Source: an uncultured virus (IMG/VR IMGVR_UViG_3300037440_000410)
Lineage: Duplodnaviria; Heunggongvirae; Uroviricota; Caudoviricetes
Strand: one strand, 5' to 3'
Length of the DNA stretch: 20,000 bases
IMG/VR virus record: IMGVR_UViG_3300037440_000410
Below are positions 4,973 to 19,558 of this stretch, piece by piece. The notes below the pieces were generated by a model, which searched no databases, was not told where the DNA came from, and was given only the letters and a program-made list of their open reading frames with translations. A program made the translations under genes and the position numbers. Within the stretch, counting starts at the first letter, position 1. Each line of letters opens with the position of its first letter.

Positions 4973-5152
4973 CGTACCGCCTACATCACCGCGGTCCTGG
5001 CCATCGCGTGTGCGGCCGTCGCCGCCACCGCAGTCCTCCCGATCGCCAATCCGTACACCGCGCAGGGTCTGCGGATCGTCGCCGGCGTCATCGCCGGATG
5101 GGCCGCAAGCGAACTCCTGCCCTGCCCCTGGCACCGAAAGGAACAACCGTGA
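4969..5152 (+). pseudogene. Small two-TM membrane protein gene frameshifted just after its start
   Basis: Frame 4973-5152 reads RTAYITAVLAIACAAVAATAVLPIANPYTAQGLRIVAGVIAGWAASELLPCPWHRKEQP* with high GC3 and ends in a GTGA overlap with yqaJ. The RBS-supported ATG at 4969 is out of frame with it. Confidence 0.55.
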
Positions 5153-6072
5153 CGACGACCGTGCAGGCCGAGGCTCCGGCCTCGGCCGCCGGCCCGACCG
5201 TCCTCGGCTGGTTCGAGCCTGGCTCTGAGCCGTGGCATGCCGCCCGAGCGAACGGCATCGGCGGCTCAGAGATCGCAGCAGTCCTCGGCCTCTCCCCCTA
5301 CGAGTCCGCGTTCTCCCTCTGGCACCGCAAGAAGGGACTCGTAGCCCCGGTCGAGGAGAACGACGTCATGTACTGGGGCAAGATCCACGAACCCCAGATC
5401 TGTGCCGAGTTCGCCAAGCGACACCCCGACTTCGAACTCCGCCCCTCACCGACGTACGCCTCAGCCGGCCACCCGTCGGAGATCGCCAACCCTGACCGGC
5501 TGGTCCTCGACAGCGAATGGCGGACCGTCGCCATCGTCGAGGCCAAGACGTCCCGTAACGACGAGGGATGGGGCGAAGAAGGCACCGACCAAATCCCTGT
5601 CCACTACCGGGCGCAATGCCTCTGGTACCTGATGGTCCTCGGCGTCACCACCTGCCACGTCGCTGTTCTGATCGCAGGGTCGGAGTACCGCGAGTACGTC
5701 GTCGAGTACGACCCGGCCGACGCCACCCGCATGCGGGACGCCGCCGCCGAGTTCATGCGGACGCTGGCCGCCGACGAGCGCCCGCCGATCGACGGCCACT
5801 CCGCCACCTACCAGGCCATCCGGGAGATTCCCGAGGGCCTCGACGACGTCGACGTCGAAATCGAAACCGTCCTCCGTGACCGCTTCTACACCGCGCAAGA
5901 CGCCTTCTGGCTGGCCGAGGACGAGCTGACCGCCTGCAAGGGCGCACTCCTCGACGCGATCGACACCGGCTGGCGCGCGGTCTGCGAGCAGAAGCGGATC
6001 GCTACCCGCACCGTCCGCGAAGGCCGCACCTACCAACTTCTGCCCGCACGTACACGAAGGAACGCCCGATGA
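5149..6072 (+). CDS. YqaJ-family (lambda-exonuclease-like) recombination exonuclease
   Basis: WHAARANGIGGSEIAAVLGLSPYES, WGKIHEP, ANPDRL, VEAKT, YRAQCLWYL motifs. GAAAGGA RBS before GTG 5149. Confidence 0.92.
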   Translation: MTTTVQAEAPASAAGPTVLGWFEPGSEPWHAARANGIGGSEIAAVLGLSPYESAFSLWHRKKGLVAPVEENDVMYWGKIHEPQICAEFAKRHPDFELRPSPTYASAGHPSEIANPDRLVLDSEWRTVAIVEAKTSRNDEGWGEEGTDQIPVHYRAQCLWYLMVLGVTTCHVAVLIAGSEYREYVVEYDPADATRMRDAAAEFMRTLAADERPPIDGHSATYQAIREIPEGLDDVDVEIETVLRDRFYTAQDAFWLAEDELTACKGALLDAIDTGWRAVCEQKRIATRTVREGRTYQLLPARTRRNAR

Positions 6073-6458
6073 CCGACATGCAGCCGTACGAGCGGCTCGA
6101 CCTCGTCACCCCGGTGTTCGAGAAGAACGACGTCCAGATCGACGCGTACCTCTGGTTCGCCCTGTTCGAGTACTCCGACGGCCCTGCCCCGGACCCGAAC
6201 TCCATCGAGATCGTCACCGACCTGTGGGCCACGTCGCCCGAGGGCTACGGCTCGGTCGACATCGCACTGCTCGCCCGCCTGAACGACGGCCGCTGGGCCT
6301 CCTGCGTCGCTTGGGCAGACACGACCGGCTTCGGCTGCCAGCAGGGCGTCGACTGGCGCATCAACCCCACCCGCGAGGCGGCGATCAGCCAAGGCCTCGA
6401 CAAGGAATCCCGTACGCACCTCGGGCTGTCACTGCCCGGCGAGGAGAACACCCGATGA
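6069..6458 (+). CDS. Hypothetical acidic protein lying between exonuclease and RecT
   Basis: ATGA-coupled at both ends; high GC3; flanked by a 17-bp near-identical repeat. Confidence 0.75.
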   Translation: MTDMQPYERLDLVTPVFEKNDVQIDAYLWFALFEYSDGPAPDPNSIEIVTDLWATSPEGYGSVDIALLARLNDGRWASCVAWADTTGFGCQQGVDWRINPTREAAISQGLDKESRTHLGLSLPGEENTR

Positions 6459-7324
6459 CCGAGAACACCGTCACCAACGCCGTCGCTGTCCGCGACACCG
6501 GACCCGGCGCCATGGTCGAGGCCTACCGCGCCGACCTCGCCATGGTCATGCCGTCCCACGTCAAGCCCGACACATTCGTTCGCCTCGCCGTCGGCGTCCT
6601 GCGCCGCGACCGCAACCTCGCCCAAGCCGCACAGAACAACCCCGCCGCCCTCATGGGCGCCCTCATGGACGCCGCCCAACTCGGCCTCACCCCCGGCACC
6701 GAGCAGTTCTACCTCGTCCCCCGCAAGCAGAAGGGCCGCCTGGAAATCCAGGGCATCCGCGGCTACCAGGGCGAGATCGAACTCATCTACCGGGCGGGCG
6801 CCGTCTCCTCCGTGATCGTCGAGGTCGTCCGGCAGGCCGACACCTTCCGCTACAGCCCCGGCCGCGACGAACGCCCCGCCCACGACATCGACTGGGACGC
6901 CGAAGACCGCGGCGACCTCCGCCTCGTCTACGCCTACGCGGTCATGAAGGACGGCGCCACCAGCAAGGTCGTCGTCCTCAACCGGGCGCAAGTGATGAAG
7001 GCCAAGGCCATGAGCCAGGGATCCGACTCCGCCTACTCCCCGTGGCAGAAGCACGAGGAAGCGATGTGGATGAAGACGGCTGCGCACCGGCTGACGAAGT
7101 GGGTGCCGACGTCCGCCGAGTACATGCGGGAGCAGTTGCGGGCGCAGGCCGAGGTTGCTGCCGAGCAGCCGACGCCCGCTGTCCTGTCCGTGCCTCTGCC
7201 GCAGGCTCCCGCGCCCGGCATGGGCGAGGAGTCCGACGAGGGCCCGATCGAGGCTGAGTTCGTCGACGAGGAGTCCGGTCCGGCGCAGTGGCCGGCTGCG
7301 ACCCGACCCGGTTCCGGCGCGTAG
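6455..7324 (+). CDS. recT: RecT-family ssDNA annealing protein
   Basis: ALMDAAQLGLTPG..FYLVP, GYQGEIELIYRAG, SPWQKHEEAMWMKTAAHRLTKWVPTS; acidic tail; GAGGAG RBS. Confidence 0.92.
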   Translation: MTENTVTNAVAVRDTGPGAMVEAYRADLAMVMPSHVKPDTFVRLAVGVLRRDRNLAQAAQNNPAALMGALMDAAQLGLTPGTEQFYLVPRKQKGRLEIQGIRGYQGEIELIYRAGAVSSVIVEVVRQADTFRYSPGRDERPAHDIDWDAEDRGDLRLVYAYAVMKDGATSKVVVLNRAQVMKAKAMSQGSDSAYSPWQKHEEAMWMKTAAHRLTKWVPTSAEYMREQLRAQAEVAAEQPTPAVLSVPLPQAPAPGMGEESDEGPIEAEFVDEESGPAQWPAATRPGSGA

Positions 7325-8037: not shown

Positions 8038-8414
8038 GCCGCTACGACTGGATGGCCCAAGCCCTGTGCGCCCAGGTCGACCCCGGCCTGTGGCACTCCG
8101 ACCAGGGCGCCAACTACACGACAGCCAAACGCATCTGCGGCGCATGCCCCGTCAAGGTCGCGTGCGCCAACCACACGGCCCGCCTCGACACCGACACCCA
8201 CAGCCGGCACGGCATGTGGGCCGGCCAGACCCGAAAGCAGCGCGAAGCGAAACGCGCTCACGCCGAACGGCAGGCACGCCGTACCGAGATCGTCCGGCTG
8301 CTCGAGCGGGGCGGCATGGACGCCGAACAGATCGCCGACCACGTCGGATGCAGTGAACGCACCGTCTGGCGCGTACAGAAAGCCCACCGCGCCCAGATGG
8401 GAGTGGCCGCATGA
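8034..8414 (+). CDS. WhiB-family Fe-S transcription factor with C-terminal HTH
   Basis: WMAQALC...AKRICGACPVKVAC...GMWAG (4 Cys + G-x-W-x-G), then MDAEQIADHVGCSERTVWRV HTH. Confidence 0.88.
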   Translation: MSRYDWMAQALCAQVDPGLWHSDQGANYTTAKRICGACPVKVACANHTARLDTDTHSRHGMWAGQTRKQREAKRAHAERQARRTEIVRLLERGGMDAEQIADHVGCSERTVWRVQKAHRAQMGVAA

Positions 8415-8896
8415 ACGCCCTGTTCACCCCCCCTGACGGCGACTCGTGGATGGCCCAGGCCGCCTGCCGCAGCGAAGGCATCAACCCCGAGTGGTTCTTC
8501 CCCGCGCAGGAGAACGGCCCGTCCCTGTCGACCGCCCGCGGTGTCTGCGCCGGCTGCAGGGTCAGGCAGTCCTGCTACGACGACGTGATGGCCGCGGAGG
8601 CCGGTAAGGGCGAAGGCTCCCGGCATGGCGTGTACGCCGGTCTGACGGGCAACCAGCGCGCCCACCTGTACAAGCGGGCCGCGAGCCGCGCCAGGCGGGA
8701 ACGGGCCGCCGTCGAAGCGCCTGCGGCGCCTGCCGAGCCGAGGCCGTCCAGGCCGAAACTCGCGCCGTGCGGCACCCGGTCCGCGTACCAGCGGCACATC
8801 AAGAAGGGCGAGCCCGTCGACGACGCGTGCCGGAAGGCGAACACGGACGCGGACAACCGGCTGCGTCGGACCGGCAGCACGAAGCGCGCGGCCTGA
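8411..8896 (+). CDS. WhiB-family transcription factor with C-terminal CGT...RH...C module
   Basis: WMAQAAC...WFFP...ARGVCAGCRVRQSC...GVYAGLT; C-terminal PCGTRSAYQRHIKKGEPVDDAC. Confidence 0.88.
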   Translation: MNALFTPPDGDSWMAQAACRSEGINPEWFFPAQENGPSLSTARGVCAGCRVRQSCYDDVMAAEAGKGEGSRHGVYAGLTGNQRAHLYKRAASRARRERAAVEAPAAPAEPRPSRPKLAPCGTRSAYQRHIKKGEPVDDACRKANTDADNRLRRTGSTKRAA

Positions 8897-9126: not shown

Positions 9127-9813
9127 ATGATCAGCATCACCAACGTCGAGCAGCAGGCCCCCGGCCTCGTCTCCCTCGCCAAGACCGCCGCCGTCAGCCT
9201 GGAGAAGAACGGCCTCGGCGGGCAGCGCGCCGCCGTCCAGCTCGTCCTCGACCACTCCGGCAGCATGGCTCCCTTCTACGCCAACGGGTCGGTGCAGCGC
9301 CTTGCCGAGCAAGCCCTCGGCCTCAGCGTGAACCTCGACGACGACGGCGCAGTGCCGGTCATCTTCTTCGGCTCCCGCGCCGAGCAGCATGACGACGCCC
9401 GCCTCGACAACTACGCCGGGATCATCGACCACACCCACCAGGGTGTGCGCTGGGGCTCGACGGACTACGTCGCCGGGATGGACGCGGCAATCGCCGAGTA
9501 CCGCAACTCCGGGGCCACGGACCCGGCGCTCGTCATCTTCCAGACGGATGGCGAGCCGGACGACCGCGGCGCCGCCGAACGCGCGCTGCGGGCCGCGTCG
9601 ACGCTGCCGATCTTCTGGGCGTTCGTCGGGTTCGGCGGGCGCGTCTCCTTCCTGGAGAAGCTCGACGACCTCAGCGGGCGGGCCGTCGACAACGCTTCCT
9701 TCTTCCACGCGGCGAACCCGCATGCCGTGACCGACGAGCAGCTCTACGACGGGATCACCAGCGAGTTCGCGGGCTGGCTCGCCGCCGCTCGCGCCGCCGG
9801 AGTTCTCCGCTAA
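9127..9813 (+). CDS. vWA domain protein of the TerF-C-terminal (vWA-TerF-like) type
   Basis: MIDAS motif LVLDHSGSM, GSTDY, VIFQTDG, plus PIFWAFVGFG, LEKLDD, VDNASFF, LYDGITSEF; AAGGAG RBS. Confidence 0.85.
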   Translation: MISITNVEQQAPGLVSLAKTAAVSLEKNGLGGQRAAVQLVLDHSGSMAPFYANGSVQRLAEQALGLSVNLDDDGAVPVIFFGSRAEQHDDARLDNYAGIIDHTHQGVRWGSTDYVAGMDAAIAEYRNSGATDPALVIFQTDGEPDDRGAAERALRAASTLPIFWAFVGFGGRVSFLEKLDDLSGRAVDNASFFHAANPHAVTDEQLYDGITSEFAGWLAAARAAGVLR

Positions 9814-9827
9814 CCACCTGACCACGC

Positions 9828-9872
9828 CCCGCCGCAACCGAACTGCGGCGGTCTACCCACCCAAGGAGAACA
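9828..9872 (+). repeat. Hairpin+RBS leader repeat, copy 2
   Basis: CCCGCCGCAACCGAACTGCGGCGGTCTACCCACCCAAGGAGAACA. Confidence 0.8.
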
Positions 9873-9874
9873 TG

Positions 9875-11035
9875 ATGAGTACGAGACTGACGGAACTGTC
9901 GCCAGACCAGGTGGCGGCTCTCGCCACTACCCGCGAAAGATGGCTCGCCCACGGTCTCGCGACCGGCCCCGCCGACCGTGCGGAGGCAGAGGCGGGGGTG
10001 CGTGATGCATATCGTGCTGCTGGTTTGGAGCCGCCGCAGGCTGTGATCTGGCTCGATTCGCCGATGGCTGGCGCGATTGCTGCCTGGATGCTCACGACTG
10101 CTCGGGCTCAGGTCGGGGCTCAGGTCGGGGATCAGGTCGGGGATCAGGTCTGGGCTCAGGTCGGGGCTCAGGTCCGGGCTCAGGTCGGGGCTCAGGTCCG
10201 GGCTCAGGTCGGGGCTCAGGTCTGGGATCAGGTCTGGGATCAGGTCGGGGCTCAGGTCCGGGCTCAGGTCCGGGCTCAGGTCGGGGCTCAGGTCGGGGCT
10301 CAGGTCCGGGATCAGGTCCGGGCTCAGGTCCGGGATCAGGTCGGGGCTCAGGTCCGGGATCAGGTCCGGGCTCAGGTCTACAAGGCCGTACCCGGACAAC
10401 ACGACGCCGGATGGCTCGCCTTCTACGACTACTTCCACACCCACTGCACCATCCAAGAAGCAGACCGCCTCACCAGCATGATGCGCGTCGCCAAAAGCGC
10501 AGGCTGGTGGTGGCCGTTCGCCAACGCCGTCATCCTCACCGAACGCCCCACCAGCCTCCACCGCGACAGCCAAGGCCGCCTCCACCACGAGACCGGCCCC
10601 GCACTCGCCTACCCCGACGGATTCGCCATCTGGGCATGGCACGGCACCCGCGTCCCCCGCGACCTCATCGAAACCGGCTGGGACCTCAAGCAGATCTTCG
10701 ATGAACCCAACGCGGAAATCCGTCGCTGCGCCATCGAACGCATCGGCTGGGACCAGTTCATCCAGGACTCCGGCCTGAAGAAAGTCGCCTCCGCCCCCGA
10801 CCCGGGCAACGCCCCCTACCACCTCGCACTGTATGACCTGCCCGACGAACTCTCCGACCTGTACGACGACGAGGCCCGCATCCTCCTGTGCGTCAACGGC
10901 ACCGAAGAACGCGACGGCACTCGCCACCGTTTCGGGCTCCCTGTCCCCGCGCACCACACAGACCCCGTCGAAGCCGCAGCCGACCTCTACGGCTGGCCCG
11001 TCGCCGCCTACCGGCAGATGGAGGTGCGCCGCTGA
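9875..11035 (+). CDS. DUF6745-like protein with tetrapeptide repeat
   Basis: N-terminal [33 protein letters not shown]-terminal GWWWP...[13 protein letters not shown]...[28 protein letters not shown]. Start could be ATG 9872 or 9875; 9875 has the better RBS spacing. Confidence 0.8.
10103..10378 (+). repeat. Coding tandem repeat, 23 x 12 bp (NGG GMT CAG GTC) = (R/G/W)(A/D)QV
   Basis: Counted directly from the sequence and the translation; 276 bp. Confidence 0.95.
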
Positions 11036-11089
11036 CCTCGCGGCGCACCCGGCACCCACACCACCCAACAGAAAGAGAAGGAAATCATC

Positions 11090-11491
11090 GTGGCAACTCT
11101 CGCTCAGATCGAGCAGCAGACCGGCGTCAGCGTCTTCGACTGGCTGGCCCGCGAAGCCGAAGTCCCCGTCGTAACCCGTGCGGCCTGCCAGGGCGACGTC
11201 AGCGTCCTCCGCGTCACCACCGCCCCCGCAACCCTGCCGCTGCCGCAGGCCGGTGTCGCCGTGGTCCGCGGCGAGGCAGGCGGCAACACCCACTCGCTTC
11301 ACGGCCCGGTCTTGTGGGACACGGCCGACGGCCGGGACGGACAGCTCGTCCTGGGCACGCTGACCGTCCCCGAGGGCGAGCAGGCGGTCCTCGCGCACCC
11401 GGAGCACGGATTCCTCGCCATCACGCCCGGCACGTACCGGGTCGGGCGTCAGCGGGAGTACGCGGGTGAGTGGCAGATGGTCGCCGACTAG
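11090..11491 (+). CDS. Small beta-rich partner of the DUF6745-like gene (QGDV...GEAGGNTH...HPEHG...PGTYRVGRQREY)
   Basis: AAGGA RBS before GTG 11090; the motif set matches small proteins I recall next to DUF6745 genes. Confidence 0.75.
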   Translation: MATLAQIEQQTGVSVFDWLAREAEVPVVTRAACQGDVSVLRVTTAPATLPLPQAGVAVVRGEAGGNTHSLHGPVLWDTADGRDGQLVLGTLTVPEGEQAVLAHPEHGFLAITPGTYRVGRQREYAGEWQMVAD

Positions 11492-11545
11492 TAGCACCCC
11501 GAGAAACCGGCGGCCGGCCGACTTCCCCCAACAAGCCGGCCGCCA

Positions 11546-11589
11546 CCCGGTCCCGTCCGACCTCACCCCCGGAGGCGGGCGGGACCGGG
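11546..11589. terminator. Long GC stem-loop after the DUF6745 pair
   Basis: CCCGGTCCCGTCCG-A-CCTC pairs with GAGG-CGGGCGGGACCGGG (one bulge, one G-U); a second hairpin lies at about 11510-11543. Confidence 0.55.
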
Positions 11590-11616: not shown

Positions 11617-11829
11617 GTGACCAGCAGCCGCACCCTCTACGCCCGCCTCGTCGACCCCGAACGCGCCACCACCCGCAAGACGGCCGCCCGCCTCTACACC
11701 CAAGGCGCCACCATCCAATCCGTCGCACGCGAGATCGGCGGCTCGTACTGGCTGGCCCGCACGTTGCTCCTCGAAGCCGACGTGCAGCTGCGCGGACGCG
11801 GCGGCGGCGCACGGAAGGCAGGCGCCTGA
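11617..11829 (+). CDS. Small HTH protein (HTH_58-like) with RGRGG tail
   Basis: GAAAGG RBS; LYTQGATIQSVAREIGGSYWLARTLLLEADVQLRGRGG. Confidence 0.75.
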   Translation: MTSSRTLYARLVDPERATTRKTAARLYTQGATIQSVAREIGGSYWLARTLLLEADVQLRGRGGGARKAGA

Positions 11830-12170
11830 TGGACACCGACGAGACCCCGGCGAGCGCCGACGCGGTCACCCCCGAAGTCGCCGACGAACTCCGAGCCATG
11901 CACGCCATCGCCCGCACCGTGCGCGGCTCAACCCCGATCGATGACCCGAAGCGGAAGGTCGGCGAAGAGTTCACCGAGGCGCTCGCCGTCCTCGTCGAAC
12001 AGGGCGTCACCGTCTACCGGCTCGCCAAGGTCCTCGGGATAGGCCACCAGGCCGTGTACGCGCGGCTTGCCCGTCGCGGCTACCGGAAGGCCGCCCCGTC
12101 CCACGCCCACACCGCGTACCGCAACACCACGATCTGGGACGCCCGCCGCGCCAACCAGGCCGACCAGTAG
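11829..12170 (+). CDS. HTH DNA-binding protein
   Basis: TGATG overlap; GVTVYRLAKVLGIGHQAVYARLARRGY HTH. Confidence 0.75.
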   Translation: MDTDETPASADAVTPEVADELRAMHAIARTVRGSTPIDDPKRKVGEEFTEALAVLVEQGVTVYRLAKVLGIGHQAVYARLARRGYRKAAPSHAHTAYRNTTIWDARRANQADQ

Positions 12171-12241: not shown

Positions 12242-14275
12242 ATGGCCAGGCGCTTCAACACCAGGCAACGAGTCGCCCTCTGTCTCGCCGCTGACGGGTG
12301 CTGCGAGATGTGCGGAACCGAACTCGAACGCGGCTGGCATGCCGATCACTCAACCCCTTGGTCCCGTGGCGGAGAGACCGACGTTATCAACGGCCAAGCC
12401 CTCTGCCCCACCTGCAACCTTAGGAAAGGCTCCAGAATGCCCCTGTCTCCCCGCGCCTGGCAGCGACGCTTCATCGCGAAGTACCACGCCCACACCGGCA
12501 CCGACTTCCTCTGCGTCGCGTGCCCCGGCGCCGGCAAGACGCACGGTGCTGCATACATCACGGCGGACCTCCTGCGCGACGGAGTCATCGACCGCGTTCT
12601 GATCGTTGTGCCGGGATCAACTCTGCGTGGGCAGTGGGCGAAGACGTTCAGCGAGCACGGTATCCGCATCGACGGCAGCACCATGAACGACAAGACCGAC
12701 CATCACCCCAGGTACTGGCGCGGCGAGATCGACGCGCAAGACGGCCACCCCGTCCAGGGGTGGGCGATCACGTACCACTCCCTGGACGCCAACCCGGAGT
12801 ACCACCGGGTCCTCAATAGCCGGAAGCGCACCCTCGTGATCCTCGACGAGGTCCACCACCTCGGTGACGAAGGGGCATGGGGCAAGAGCGCCGAGGAAGC
12901 GCTCAGCGTATGCACGCGCAGGCTCAGCCTGTCTGGGACGCCATTCCGCAGCGACAACGCGAAGATCCCGTTCGCCACTTACTACCCCCGCGGCCACGAG
13001 AAAGCCGGATGGGTGCGGTTCACCGACGACGATCACCTCGGTCCATTCGCCGCCGGCTTCGACTACTCGTACGGCGTCGCCCTATCCGAGAAGCCCGCAC
13101 CGGTGCGCCCCGCAGTCTTCGAGATGTACGACAGCGACGTCTCATGGTTCGACGCGAAGGCGTTCAAAGATCGCACCGTCCGCCTCTCCCAGGAAAACCT
13201 CACCAAGAACCTCCGGCGCAAGGCCAACCGAATGGTCCTTGACCCCGCGGGGCAGTGGCTTGAGGAAGCGCTTCGGGCGGCCGACGAACGACTCACCTCC
13301 GTACAGGTCGAGGGCGACGCCGACGCGAAGGGTCTCGTGGTGTGCCTCGATACGGAGCACGCGCACGACGTCGCGCAGGTCCTGGCTCGCGTGACCGGCG
13401 TCCGCACGGTGCCCGTCGCAGCGTCCAAGGGCGAGGACGGAACCGACAGCTCTAAGCAGGCAGGGGCCGCCATCGAGGCGTTCAAGAACAGCCGGGACCG
13501 CTGGATCGTGGCCGTGGCCATGGTCTCGGAAGGCGTCGACATCCCGAAGCTCCGCGTCGGCGTGTACGCCACCAACAAGCGGACCGAGTTGTTCTTCCGC
13601 CAGGTCCTCGGGCGCCTGGTGCGCGTGAGGGAGGACCTGCCCCGGGACGTCGACCAGACCGCTTACATGTTCGTCCCGAAGGAAGAGGGCATCGTCGCCC
13701 TCGCCGACGCGGTGACCCGCGAGATCGGCGACGGCGTGATGGCGTCACTGGACGTCGACGACGAGGACGACCAAACCCGCGACCGCGGGGAGGGCAGCAG
13801 TCAAGGGAGCCTGTTCGCCGACCAGTTCCAGGGAGCGACCGGTGAAGCGGCCGGCTTCCTGCTGCCGGGATCCGGCACGTTCGACCACGAACAGGTAAGC
13901 CGGATCGCCGCGGAGGCCGGTCACGCTCCGGGCATCGTCCTCGGCGTCCTCCAGGCGGCTCAGCGAACTGGCATCACGTTCGGCCCTGGGTTCGGTCATC
14001 CGTCTCCGACCGTTCCGCAGCAGCAGGCCCAGGCTGCCCCTGAGGAGCCGTGGGAGGTCAGGGCGAGGGCCCGCCGCGCGTCTCTGGACAAGGCGGTGAA
14101 GCAGATCGCCGGGAAGCGGATGCGCAATCAGGGTGGCGGCGACTTCGGCCCGATGATGCAGCACGTGTGGTCGGAGTTGAAGAAGCGCTCCGGCATCGCC
14201 GACCTGCGCCGCGCGGACATCCCGGAGCTAGACAAGGCGGTCGCGGTTGCCCGCGAGATGTGGGCGGCGCTGTGA
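12242..14275 (+). CDS. HNH endonuclease fused to SF2 (DExH) helicase/translocase
   Basis: N-terminal CEMC...HADHSTPWSRGG...NGQALCPTCNLRKG (HNH); helicase Q motif RAWQ, Walker A PGAGKT, ILDEVHH, LSGTPFR, MVSEGVDIP, QVLGRLVR. Confidence 0.9.
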   Translation: MARRFNTRQRVALCLAADGCCEMCGTELERGWHADHSTPWSRGGETDVINGQALCPTCNLRKGSRMPLSPRAWQRRFIAKYHAHTGTDFLCVACPGAGKTHGAAYITADLLRDGVIDRVLIVVPGSTLRGQWAKTFSEHGIRIDGSTMNDKTDHHPRYWRGEIDAQDGHPVQGWAITYHSLDANPEYHRVLNSRKRTLVILDEVHHLGDEGAWGKSAEEALSVCTRRLSLSGTPFRSDNAKIPFATYYPRGHEKAGWVRFTDDDHLGPFAAGFDYSYGVALSEKPAPVRPAVFEMYDSDVSWFDAKAFKDRTVRLSQENLTKNLRRKANRMVLDPAGQWLEEALRAADERLTSVQVEGDADAKGLVVCLDTEHAHDVAQVLARVTGVRTVPVAASKGEDGTDSSKQAGAAIEAFKNSRDRWIVAVAMVSEGVDIPKLRVGVYATNKRTELFFRQVLGRLVRVREDLPRDVDQTAYMFVPKEEGIVALADAVTREIGDGVMASLDVDDEDDQTRDRGEGSSQGSLFADQFQGATGEAAGFLLPGSGTFDHEQVSRIAAEAGHAPGIVLGVLQAAQRTGITFGPGFGHPSPTVPQQQAQAAPEEPWEVRARARRASLDKAVKQIAGKRMRNQGGGDFGPMMQHVWSELKKRSGIADLRRADIPELDKAVAVAREMWAAL

Positions 14276-19288: not shown

Positions 19289-19558
19289 ATGACCCAGCCC
19301 ACCGCCCAGCAGCTCGACGAAATCCAGGCCCGCGCCGCCCACCTCACCGAGTACGCCACCCTGACCGACCAGCCTCTCCAAGCCGACGCCGACCAACTGA
19401 CCGGAGAGGACGTGCCCGCCCTCGTCGCCGAAGTCCGCCGCCTCACCGACCGCGTCACCGAGCTGGAAAACGACTCGGCCATGCTCTCCGCCCTCTACGC
19501 CGCCGGAGTCGACAGCTGGGACGGCTACGACGAAGCCCGCGACCGGCTACACGCCTGA
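19289..19558 (+). CDS. Ead/Ea22-like coiled-coil hypothetical protein
   Basis: GGAG RBS; LDEIQARAA...DVPALVAEVRRL...ALYAAGVDSWDGY. Confidence 0.75.
   Translation: MTQPTAQQLDEIQARAAHLTEYATLTDQPLQADADQLTGEDVPALVAEVRRLTDRVTELENDSAMLSALYAAGVDSWDGYDEARDRLHA

Follow-up and report, generated by a model that had tools for sequence, protein, structure and literature searches.

A two-gene phage module of a DUF6745 protein with a four-residue repeat spacer and a partner resembling the C-terminal half of AcrIIIB1

TALE-type repeats, contingency VNTR loci and DGRs all combine a fixed framework with a few variable residues, and all diversify within a single gene. A different kind of system is represented by AcrIIIB1, which is encoded by viruses and binds Cmr complexes (PMC10681719). 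SIRV2 gp48 is the protein designated AcrIIIB1/AcrIA4 (bioRxiv 10.1101/2024.04.02.587611; PMC11065993; PMC10681719). According to a preprint it also blocks type I-A (bioRxiv 10.1101/2024.04.02.587611), and the mechanism by which it blocks immunity is presented as still open in PMC10681719. Here we describe a phage locus with points of likeness to both groups. The literature searched contained no described function for DUF6745 and no description of the pairing of DUF6745 with the partner gene analysed below, or of its link to AcrIIIB1; the earlier statement that the pair has no assigned function therefore holds within that literature.

The window analysed is a 20,000-nucleotide stretch forming the final 20 kb of a 73,028-bp viral contig, with an estimated completeness of 78% and a GC content of approximately 69%. 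A domain scan identified a YqaJ exonuclease, RecT and two WhiB-family regulators (5146-7324 and 8046-8896), together with replication genes, indicating that the window is early-region sequence from an actinomycete phage.

Organisation of the locus and linkage of the two genes

The features of the module and its upstream neighbour are as follows.

9127-9813, + strand: vWA-TerF-like gene (PF10138, E 1.3e-59), a neighbour outside the module
9829-9851, + strand: 8-bp GC hairpin between the vWA stop codon and the DUF6745 RBS (folding)
9863-9868, + strand: Shine-Dalgarno sequence AAGGAG, 6 nt upstream of ATG 9875
9875-11035, + strand: DUF6745 protein, 386 aa (ORF and Pfam match)
10104-10378, + strand: 12-bp tandem array coding for (G/R/W)(A/D)QV (repeat search, codon comparison, AF2)
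11090-11491, + strand: QGD/HxEH partner, 133 aa, beta-rich, with a putative His3-Glu/Asp metal site (ORF, PHROG, alignment, AF2)
11509-11589, + strand: double GC hairpin ending the unit (z -4.99; no U-tract)

The start codon of the DUF6745 gene at 9875 is preceded by a tandem ATG at 9872, and the partner ORF starts with GTG. The 386-aa protein comprises a conserved N-domain (approximately aa 1-75), a tetrapeptide spacer and a conserved C-domain (aa 164-386), so that the initial annotation was correct in describing two non-repetitive domains split by a repeat. Its suggestion of a DUF6745 protein was likewise confirmed: PF20530, a model limited to the C-domain, matched aa 164-380 with a score of 148.9 bits against a Pfam gathering cut-off of 27 (E 1.5e-43). 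The corresponding PHROG family is phrog_31813. The AF2 model had a mean pLDDT of 85.7, with the flanking domains mostly above 90, and its top BFVD match was a Ma-LMM01 protein (E 2e-15).

The pair was expected to have its own hairpin-RBS leader and to end at a double hairpin, and both structures were recovered on folding. The upstream hairpin (-15.8 kcal/mol, z -3.45) leaves the RBS outside it and is a possible terminator or processing site. The double hairpin, which was equalled in stability by 0 of 200 shuffles, is a probable terminator, and a strong hairpin was present 3′ of the partner in all six relatives folded (without a shuffle control). The sequence upstream of the DUF6745 gene differs by eye in three other loci (L001, L002 and L004), and neither a U-tract terminator nor a sigma-70 promoter was found around the pair. 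Two small HTH genes lie after the double hairpin (11617-12170), in an aca-like position; HTH_58 was found again in only one of 47 related loci. Further downstream, 12242-14275 encodes a 677-aa HNH endonuclease fused to a ResIII/DEAD-type helicase, a fusion present in none of the 47 related loci.

Linkage of the two genes was surveyed from both sides. When the partner was used as the query, DUF6745 was adjacent in 44 of 47 loci; three loci in this set are listed twice, once from each of two collections, and L047, one of the three misses, is unconfirmed as a partner. In a further set of more distant loci, limited to the best 80 of 277, DUF6745 was adjacent in 75; in four of the five misses the sequence ends no more than 850 bp downstream. 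The converse survey matched DUF6745 in 11 of 301 sampled genomes; eight of the 10 new genomes had an adjacent partner, one match lay at a contig end and one was a weak fragment. The pair is also present in Ma-LMM01 (gp175, the partner homologue, and gp174, DUF6745), in prophiGD102-1 and in one spring-water phage, and P0253 is a natural DUF6745-partner fusion of 545 aa. Both gene orders were seen, DUF6745 being first in the window. These surveys and the fusion bear out the prediction that the two genes are consistently linked, and the widespread, undescribed two-gene module is real. The vWA gene, which had been proposed as a third component, was absent from all partner loci surveyed (0 of 47 and 0 of 80, together 0/127), and the closest relative, L002, keeps the upstream 77-aa gene without the vWA; a three-gene system including vWA was therefore rejected.

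Some loci depart from the simple arrangement. In L011/L037 and L039 a single partner follows a tandem row of three (or two) DUF6745 paralogues, whose spacers are non-repetitive. The pair is duplicated identically in L008, possibly as an assembly artefact, and in L041, whose genome lacks a PF20530 match, there are two partner copies (6001-6330 and 9629-9874).

The repeat spacer

A tandem-repeat search described the array as having a period of 12, 22.9 copies and a 91% match (score 417). Two positions are variable, encoded by GGG/CGG/TGG and GCT/GAT, and all six of the six possible diresidues occur. Comparison of 22 units gave 0 synonymous and 19 non-synonymous differences. The same pattern was found more widely: among 31 arrays with 12 or more units, 25 had no synonymous difference between units, and one or two codon positions varied non-synonymously. 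The alphabets G/R/W or G/D/H/R/Y, plus D/G/A/N/S, reappear with other fixed residues and codons.

Linker length could be measured in 118 of 121 DUF6745 proteins and ranged from 25 to 313 aa (107 aa in the window). Near-identical proteins differ by four-residue steps and in unit order; part of this length ladder could be assembly error in metagenomic records, and arrays are present in isolate records too (L054, P0310). Of nine arrays tested, eight had successive units that were independent of each other and four showed linkage between the adjacent variable residues, which together fit recombinational shuffling of whole units. In the AF2 model the spacer forms low-confidence helices between the high-confidence domains. 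The variable helical spacer first proposed is thus hypervariable, as judged from linker lengths and codon comparison, and predicted to be helical.

Of the 80 viral contigs in the more distant set (best 80 of 277), 21 (among L100-L168) stop no more than 1.2 kb from the partner, past the DUF6745 N-domain and mostly within the array. It therefore appears that the spacer breaks short-read assemblies, and it is probably undercounted. In L031 (3988-5942) the N- and C-domains are in different frames across the spacer, reflecting either sequencing error or phase variation.

The partner protein and its archaeal viral relatives

The partner contains the motifs QGDV (34-37), GEAGGNTH (61-68), HPEHG (103-107) and RQREY (120-124). 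No Pfam or NCBIfam model matched it, and at E<=0.01 the only PHROG HMM that did was phrog_27831 (E 1.7e-16), the AcrIIIB1 family phrog_6092 being unmatched. A profile search recovered 1,688 family clusters at 50% identity. Conservation was assessed in an alignment of 111 sequences of 120-160 aa, consisting of the window protein and 110 of 150 listed homologues. H68 (99%), H103 (98%), E105 (93%) and H106 (99%) are conserved, as are Q34, G35, D36, G114 and the terminal D133, all within 93-99%. A fourth histidine, H71, is conserved in only 22%, so that the original count of three His plus Glu is right. In P0127, P0134 and P0136 an HNH endonuclease-like stretch was seen by eye ahead of the partner domain, either as a fusion or as a gene-calling artefact.

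The structure model of the partner was confident (pLDDT 96.1, pTM 0.89), and no fold was matched among solved structures. The first-ranked Foldseek match in BFVD was an uncharacterised 122-aa phage protein (E 3.5e-5), the second a 224-aa ARV2 protein (prob 1.00, TMq 0.44, E 0.074) and the seventh a 111-aa SIFV2 protein, the last two being assigned to genes through their unique protein lengths. The sole 224-aa ARV2 CDS is homologous to SIRV2 gp48, and both belong to phrog_6092.

Sequence profiles were compared in both directions. Partner HMMs were built from bacterial and phage sequences alone, with no archaeal input, and used to rank 832 archaeal-virus ORFs. With an 11-sequence HMM, ranks 1-9 were taken by three AFV homologues of AcrIIIB1 and all six lipothrixviral proteins of the SIFV2 gp20 type; a separate 79-sequence HMM again placed the same nine proteins in ranks 1-9 (best E 0.0048), and a broad profile filled ranks 1-7 with the six gp20-type proteins plus a single AFV homologue. 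The remaining six AcrIIIB1 homologues were either placed at rank 17 or below or absent from the listing, SIRV2 gp48 itself being at ranks 84 and 168 with the 11- and 79-sequence HMMs, respectively. In the reverse search of 4,466 ORFs, an HMM of the AcrIIIB1 C-half placed 14 partners in the top 50 (0.67 expected), against one for the N-half control HMM, and the gp20 HMM placed 38, although these counts are not independent because the sequences are related. Local HHalign comparison of partner and AcrIIIB1 was better than all 25-30 column shuffles (probability 3-13%, E 0.002-0.015); for the gp20-type proteins the probability was 54-60% (E ~1e-4). A joint alignment retained, in the same order, QG, H68/H184, H106/H223, GxY and the terminal D (partner/AcrIIIB1); D36, H103 and RQRE of the partner are not retained.

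The AcrIIIB1 N-half motif C..Y.S.SG..GC is absent from the 133-aa partner, and DUF6745 profiles scored no better than shuffles against the AcrIIIB1 N-half. Membership of the partner in the AcrIIIB1 family was therefore rejected, given the missing N-half and the lack of a family HMM match. The scores for likeness to AcrIIIB1 are individually weak, yet they recur across methods and controls, and we consider the partner to be probably a distant homologue of the AcrIIIB1 C-terminal half, which may work as that domain does.

The gp20-type gene adjoins a conserved gene of approximately 340 aa in all six lipothrixviral genomes viewed. In SIFV2 (L078:10954-12301) these are gp20 and gp21; the two adjacent genes are conserved in lipothrixviruses whose genomes code for AcrIIIB1 homologues as well. 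By eye gp21 bears a likeness to the DUF6745 C-terminus; in tests it scored no better than shuffles.

Possible functions and comparison with known systems

The combination of a shuffled-repeat protein with an AcrIIIB1-like partner suggests that phages may use the pair as a variable means of countering host defences. Our preferred reading, held tentatively, is a two-protein counter-defence complex with a putative metal site in the partner and a diversifying helical surface on the DUF6745 protein. The partner would dock onto the conserved DUF6745 domains, and H68, H103 and H106, with E105, D36 or D133, would bind metal. Recombination among the 12-bp units could yield spacer variants without a reverse transcriptase; an amphipathic helix would be maintained by the fixed Q-V/L/A positions and its surface altered at the G/R/W and D/A/G positions, giving a variable contact to changing host targets. 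The pair would act on a defence complex of the host, which may be a class 1 CRISPR effector. An anti-defence role had been suggested at the outset, and the likeness of the partner to the AcrIIIB1 C-half lends it weak independent support. The early-region setting, with YqaJ/RecT, WhiB and replication genes nearby as well as a T7 gp5.9-like RecBCD inhibitor, also suggests counter-defence; against it, a shared fold is no proof of shared function, and some pairs lie on chromosomes or among replication genes. The RecBCD-inhibitor domain (PF25708, E 4.3e-12) is encoded by a small ORF at 19289-19558, itself a second counter-defence candidate of the window phage.

The chromosomal copies argue for a wider role of the pair. 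Five (L067-L071) are divergent from the STM4015-4014-4013-4012-4011 radical-SAM operon, which is uncharacterised in the literature searched; this holds in 5/5 of the Streptomyces-like loci retrieved, all five operon genes having been scanned in three and STM4015 alone in two. Together with the tandem DUF6745 paralogues that have different spacers and one common partner, they fit a defence or sensing module of temperate phages and chromosomes, in which the helix would sense incoming phage proteins and the partner would act as signal or effector. We regard this as rather unlikely, since most pair loci are viral, in early or replication regions, and the sole characterised relative found is an anti-defence protein.

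The module might instead have another role, the spacer being a near-neutral slippage product that needs only helicity and frame. Some members have a spacer that is nearly absent (25 aa) or non-repetitive, zero synonymous variation would likewise be expected if a few founder units had evolved in concert, and the alphabets are single-base neighbours (NGG, GNC/T). However, G/R/W and D/G/A recur with fixed QV, QL, SV, SL, AV, AT and NL and with different third-codon bases, and 59 of 80 distant loci (best 80 of 277) carry such an array, making a neutral spacer unlikely. A phage DNA replication or recombination accessory, in which the partner would be a metal-dependent nucleic-acid enzyme and the spacer would provide a flexible arm, would suit the pairs of Ma-LMM01 (gp175-gp174, between DNA polymerase and UDG/clamp loader genes), prophiGD102-1 (directly after a RepA-like gene) and the window (between RecT and the HNH-helicase gene), but is improbable because the pair is patchy, with the DUF6745 C-domain in 11 of 50,697 phage records, and because a core function would not predict a diversifying spacer.

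If the partner is an AcrIIIB1 C-domain, the conserved His/Asp set becomes testable in SIRV2 gp48, and the 1,688 clusters become candidate bacterial-phage relatives of an archaeal-virus anti-CRISPR. The spacer itself is a compact means of diversification and may carry a two-letter code. A wider version seems doubtful: AcrIIIB1-like metal domains of undescribed fold would span bacterial phages and archaeal viruses, and in phages would be coupled to an RT-free, shuffled four-residue helical code that retargets them, antibody-like, to host defence complexes.

Compared with known diversifying systems, the spacer unit is 4 aa, against approximately 34 in TALE-type repeats. As for a DGR, neither an RVT_1 match nor a second template copy was found in the 78%-complete genome of the window phage, and spacer variation at G/C/T positions does not point to adenine-specific mutagenesis. 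The Ma-LMM01 pair shares both DUF6745 and the phrog_27831 partner with the window, whose partner is the long actinobacterial form. AcrIIIB1 is a single protein of 220-260 aa from viruses of archaeal hosts, with no tetrapeptide spacer and an N-half unmatched to DUF6745; AcrIIIB1 has S in place of H103, H/N/K in place of D36 and an invariant HP replacing RQRE. Its C-terminal approximately 110 aa nevertheless resemble the partner in predicted fold, profile ranking and motif order. The uncharacterised SIFV2 gp20 family (SIFV0023, AFV2 ORF122, AFV3 ORF122, AFV8 ORF124 and AFV9 ORF117b) consists, like the partner, of stand-alone proteins, of 111-124 aa, with RQGDL, HxEHG and a terminal D.
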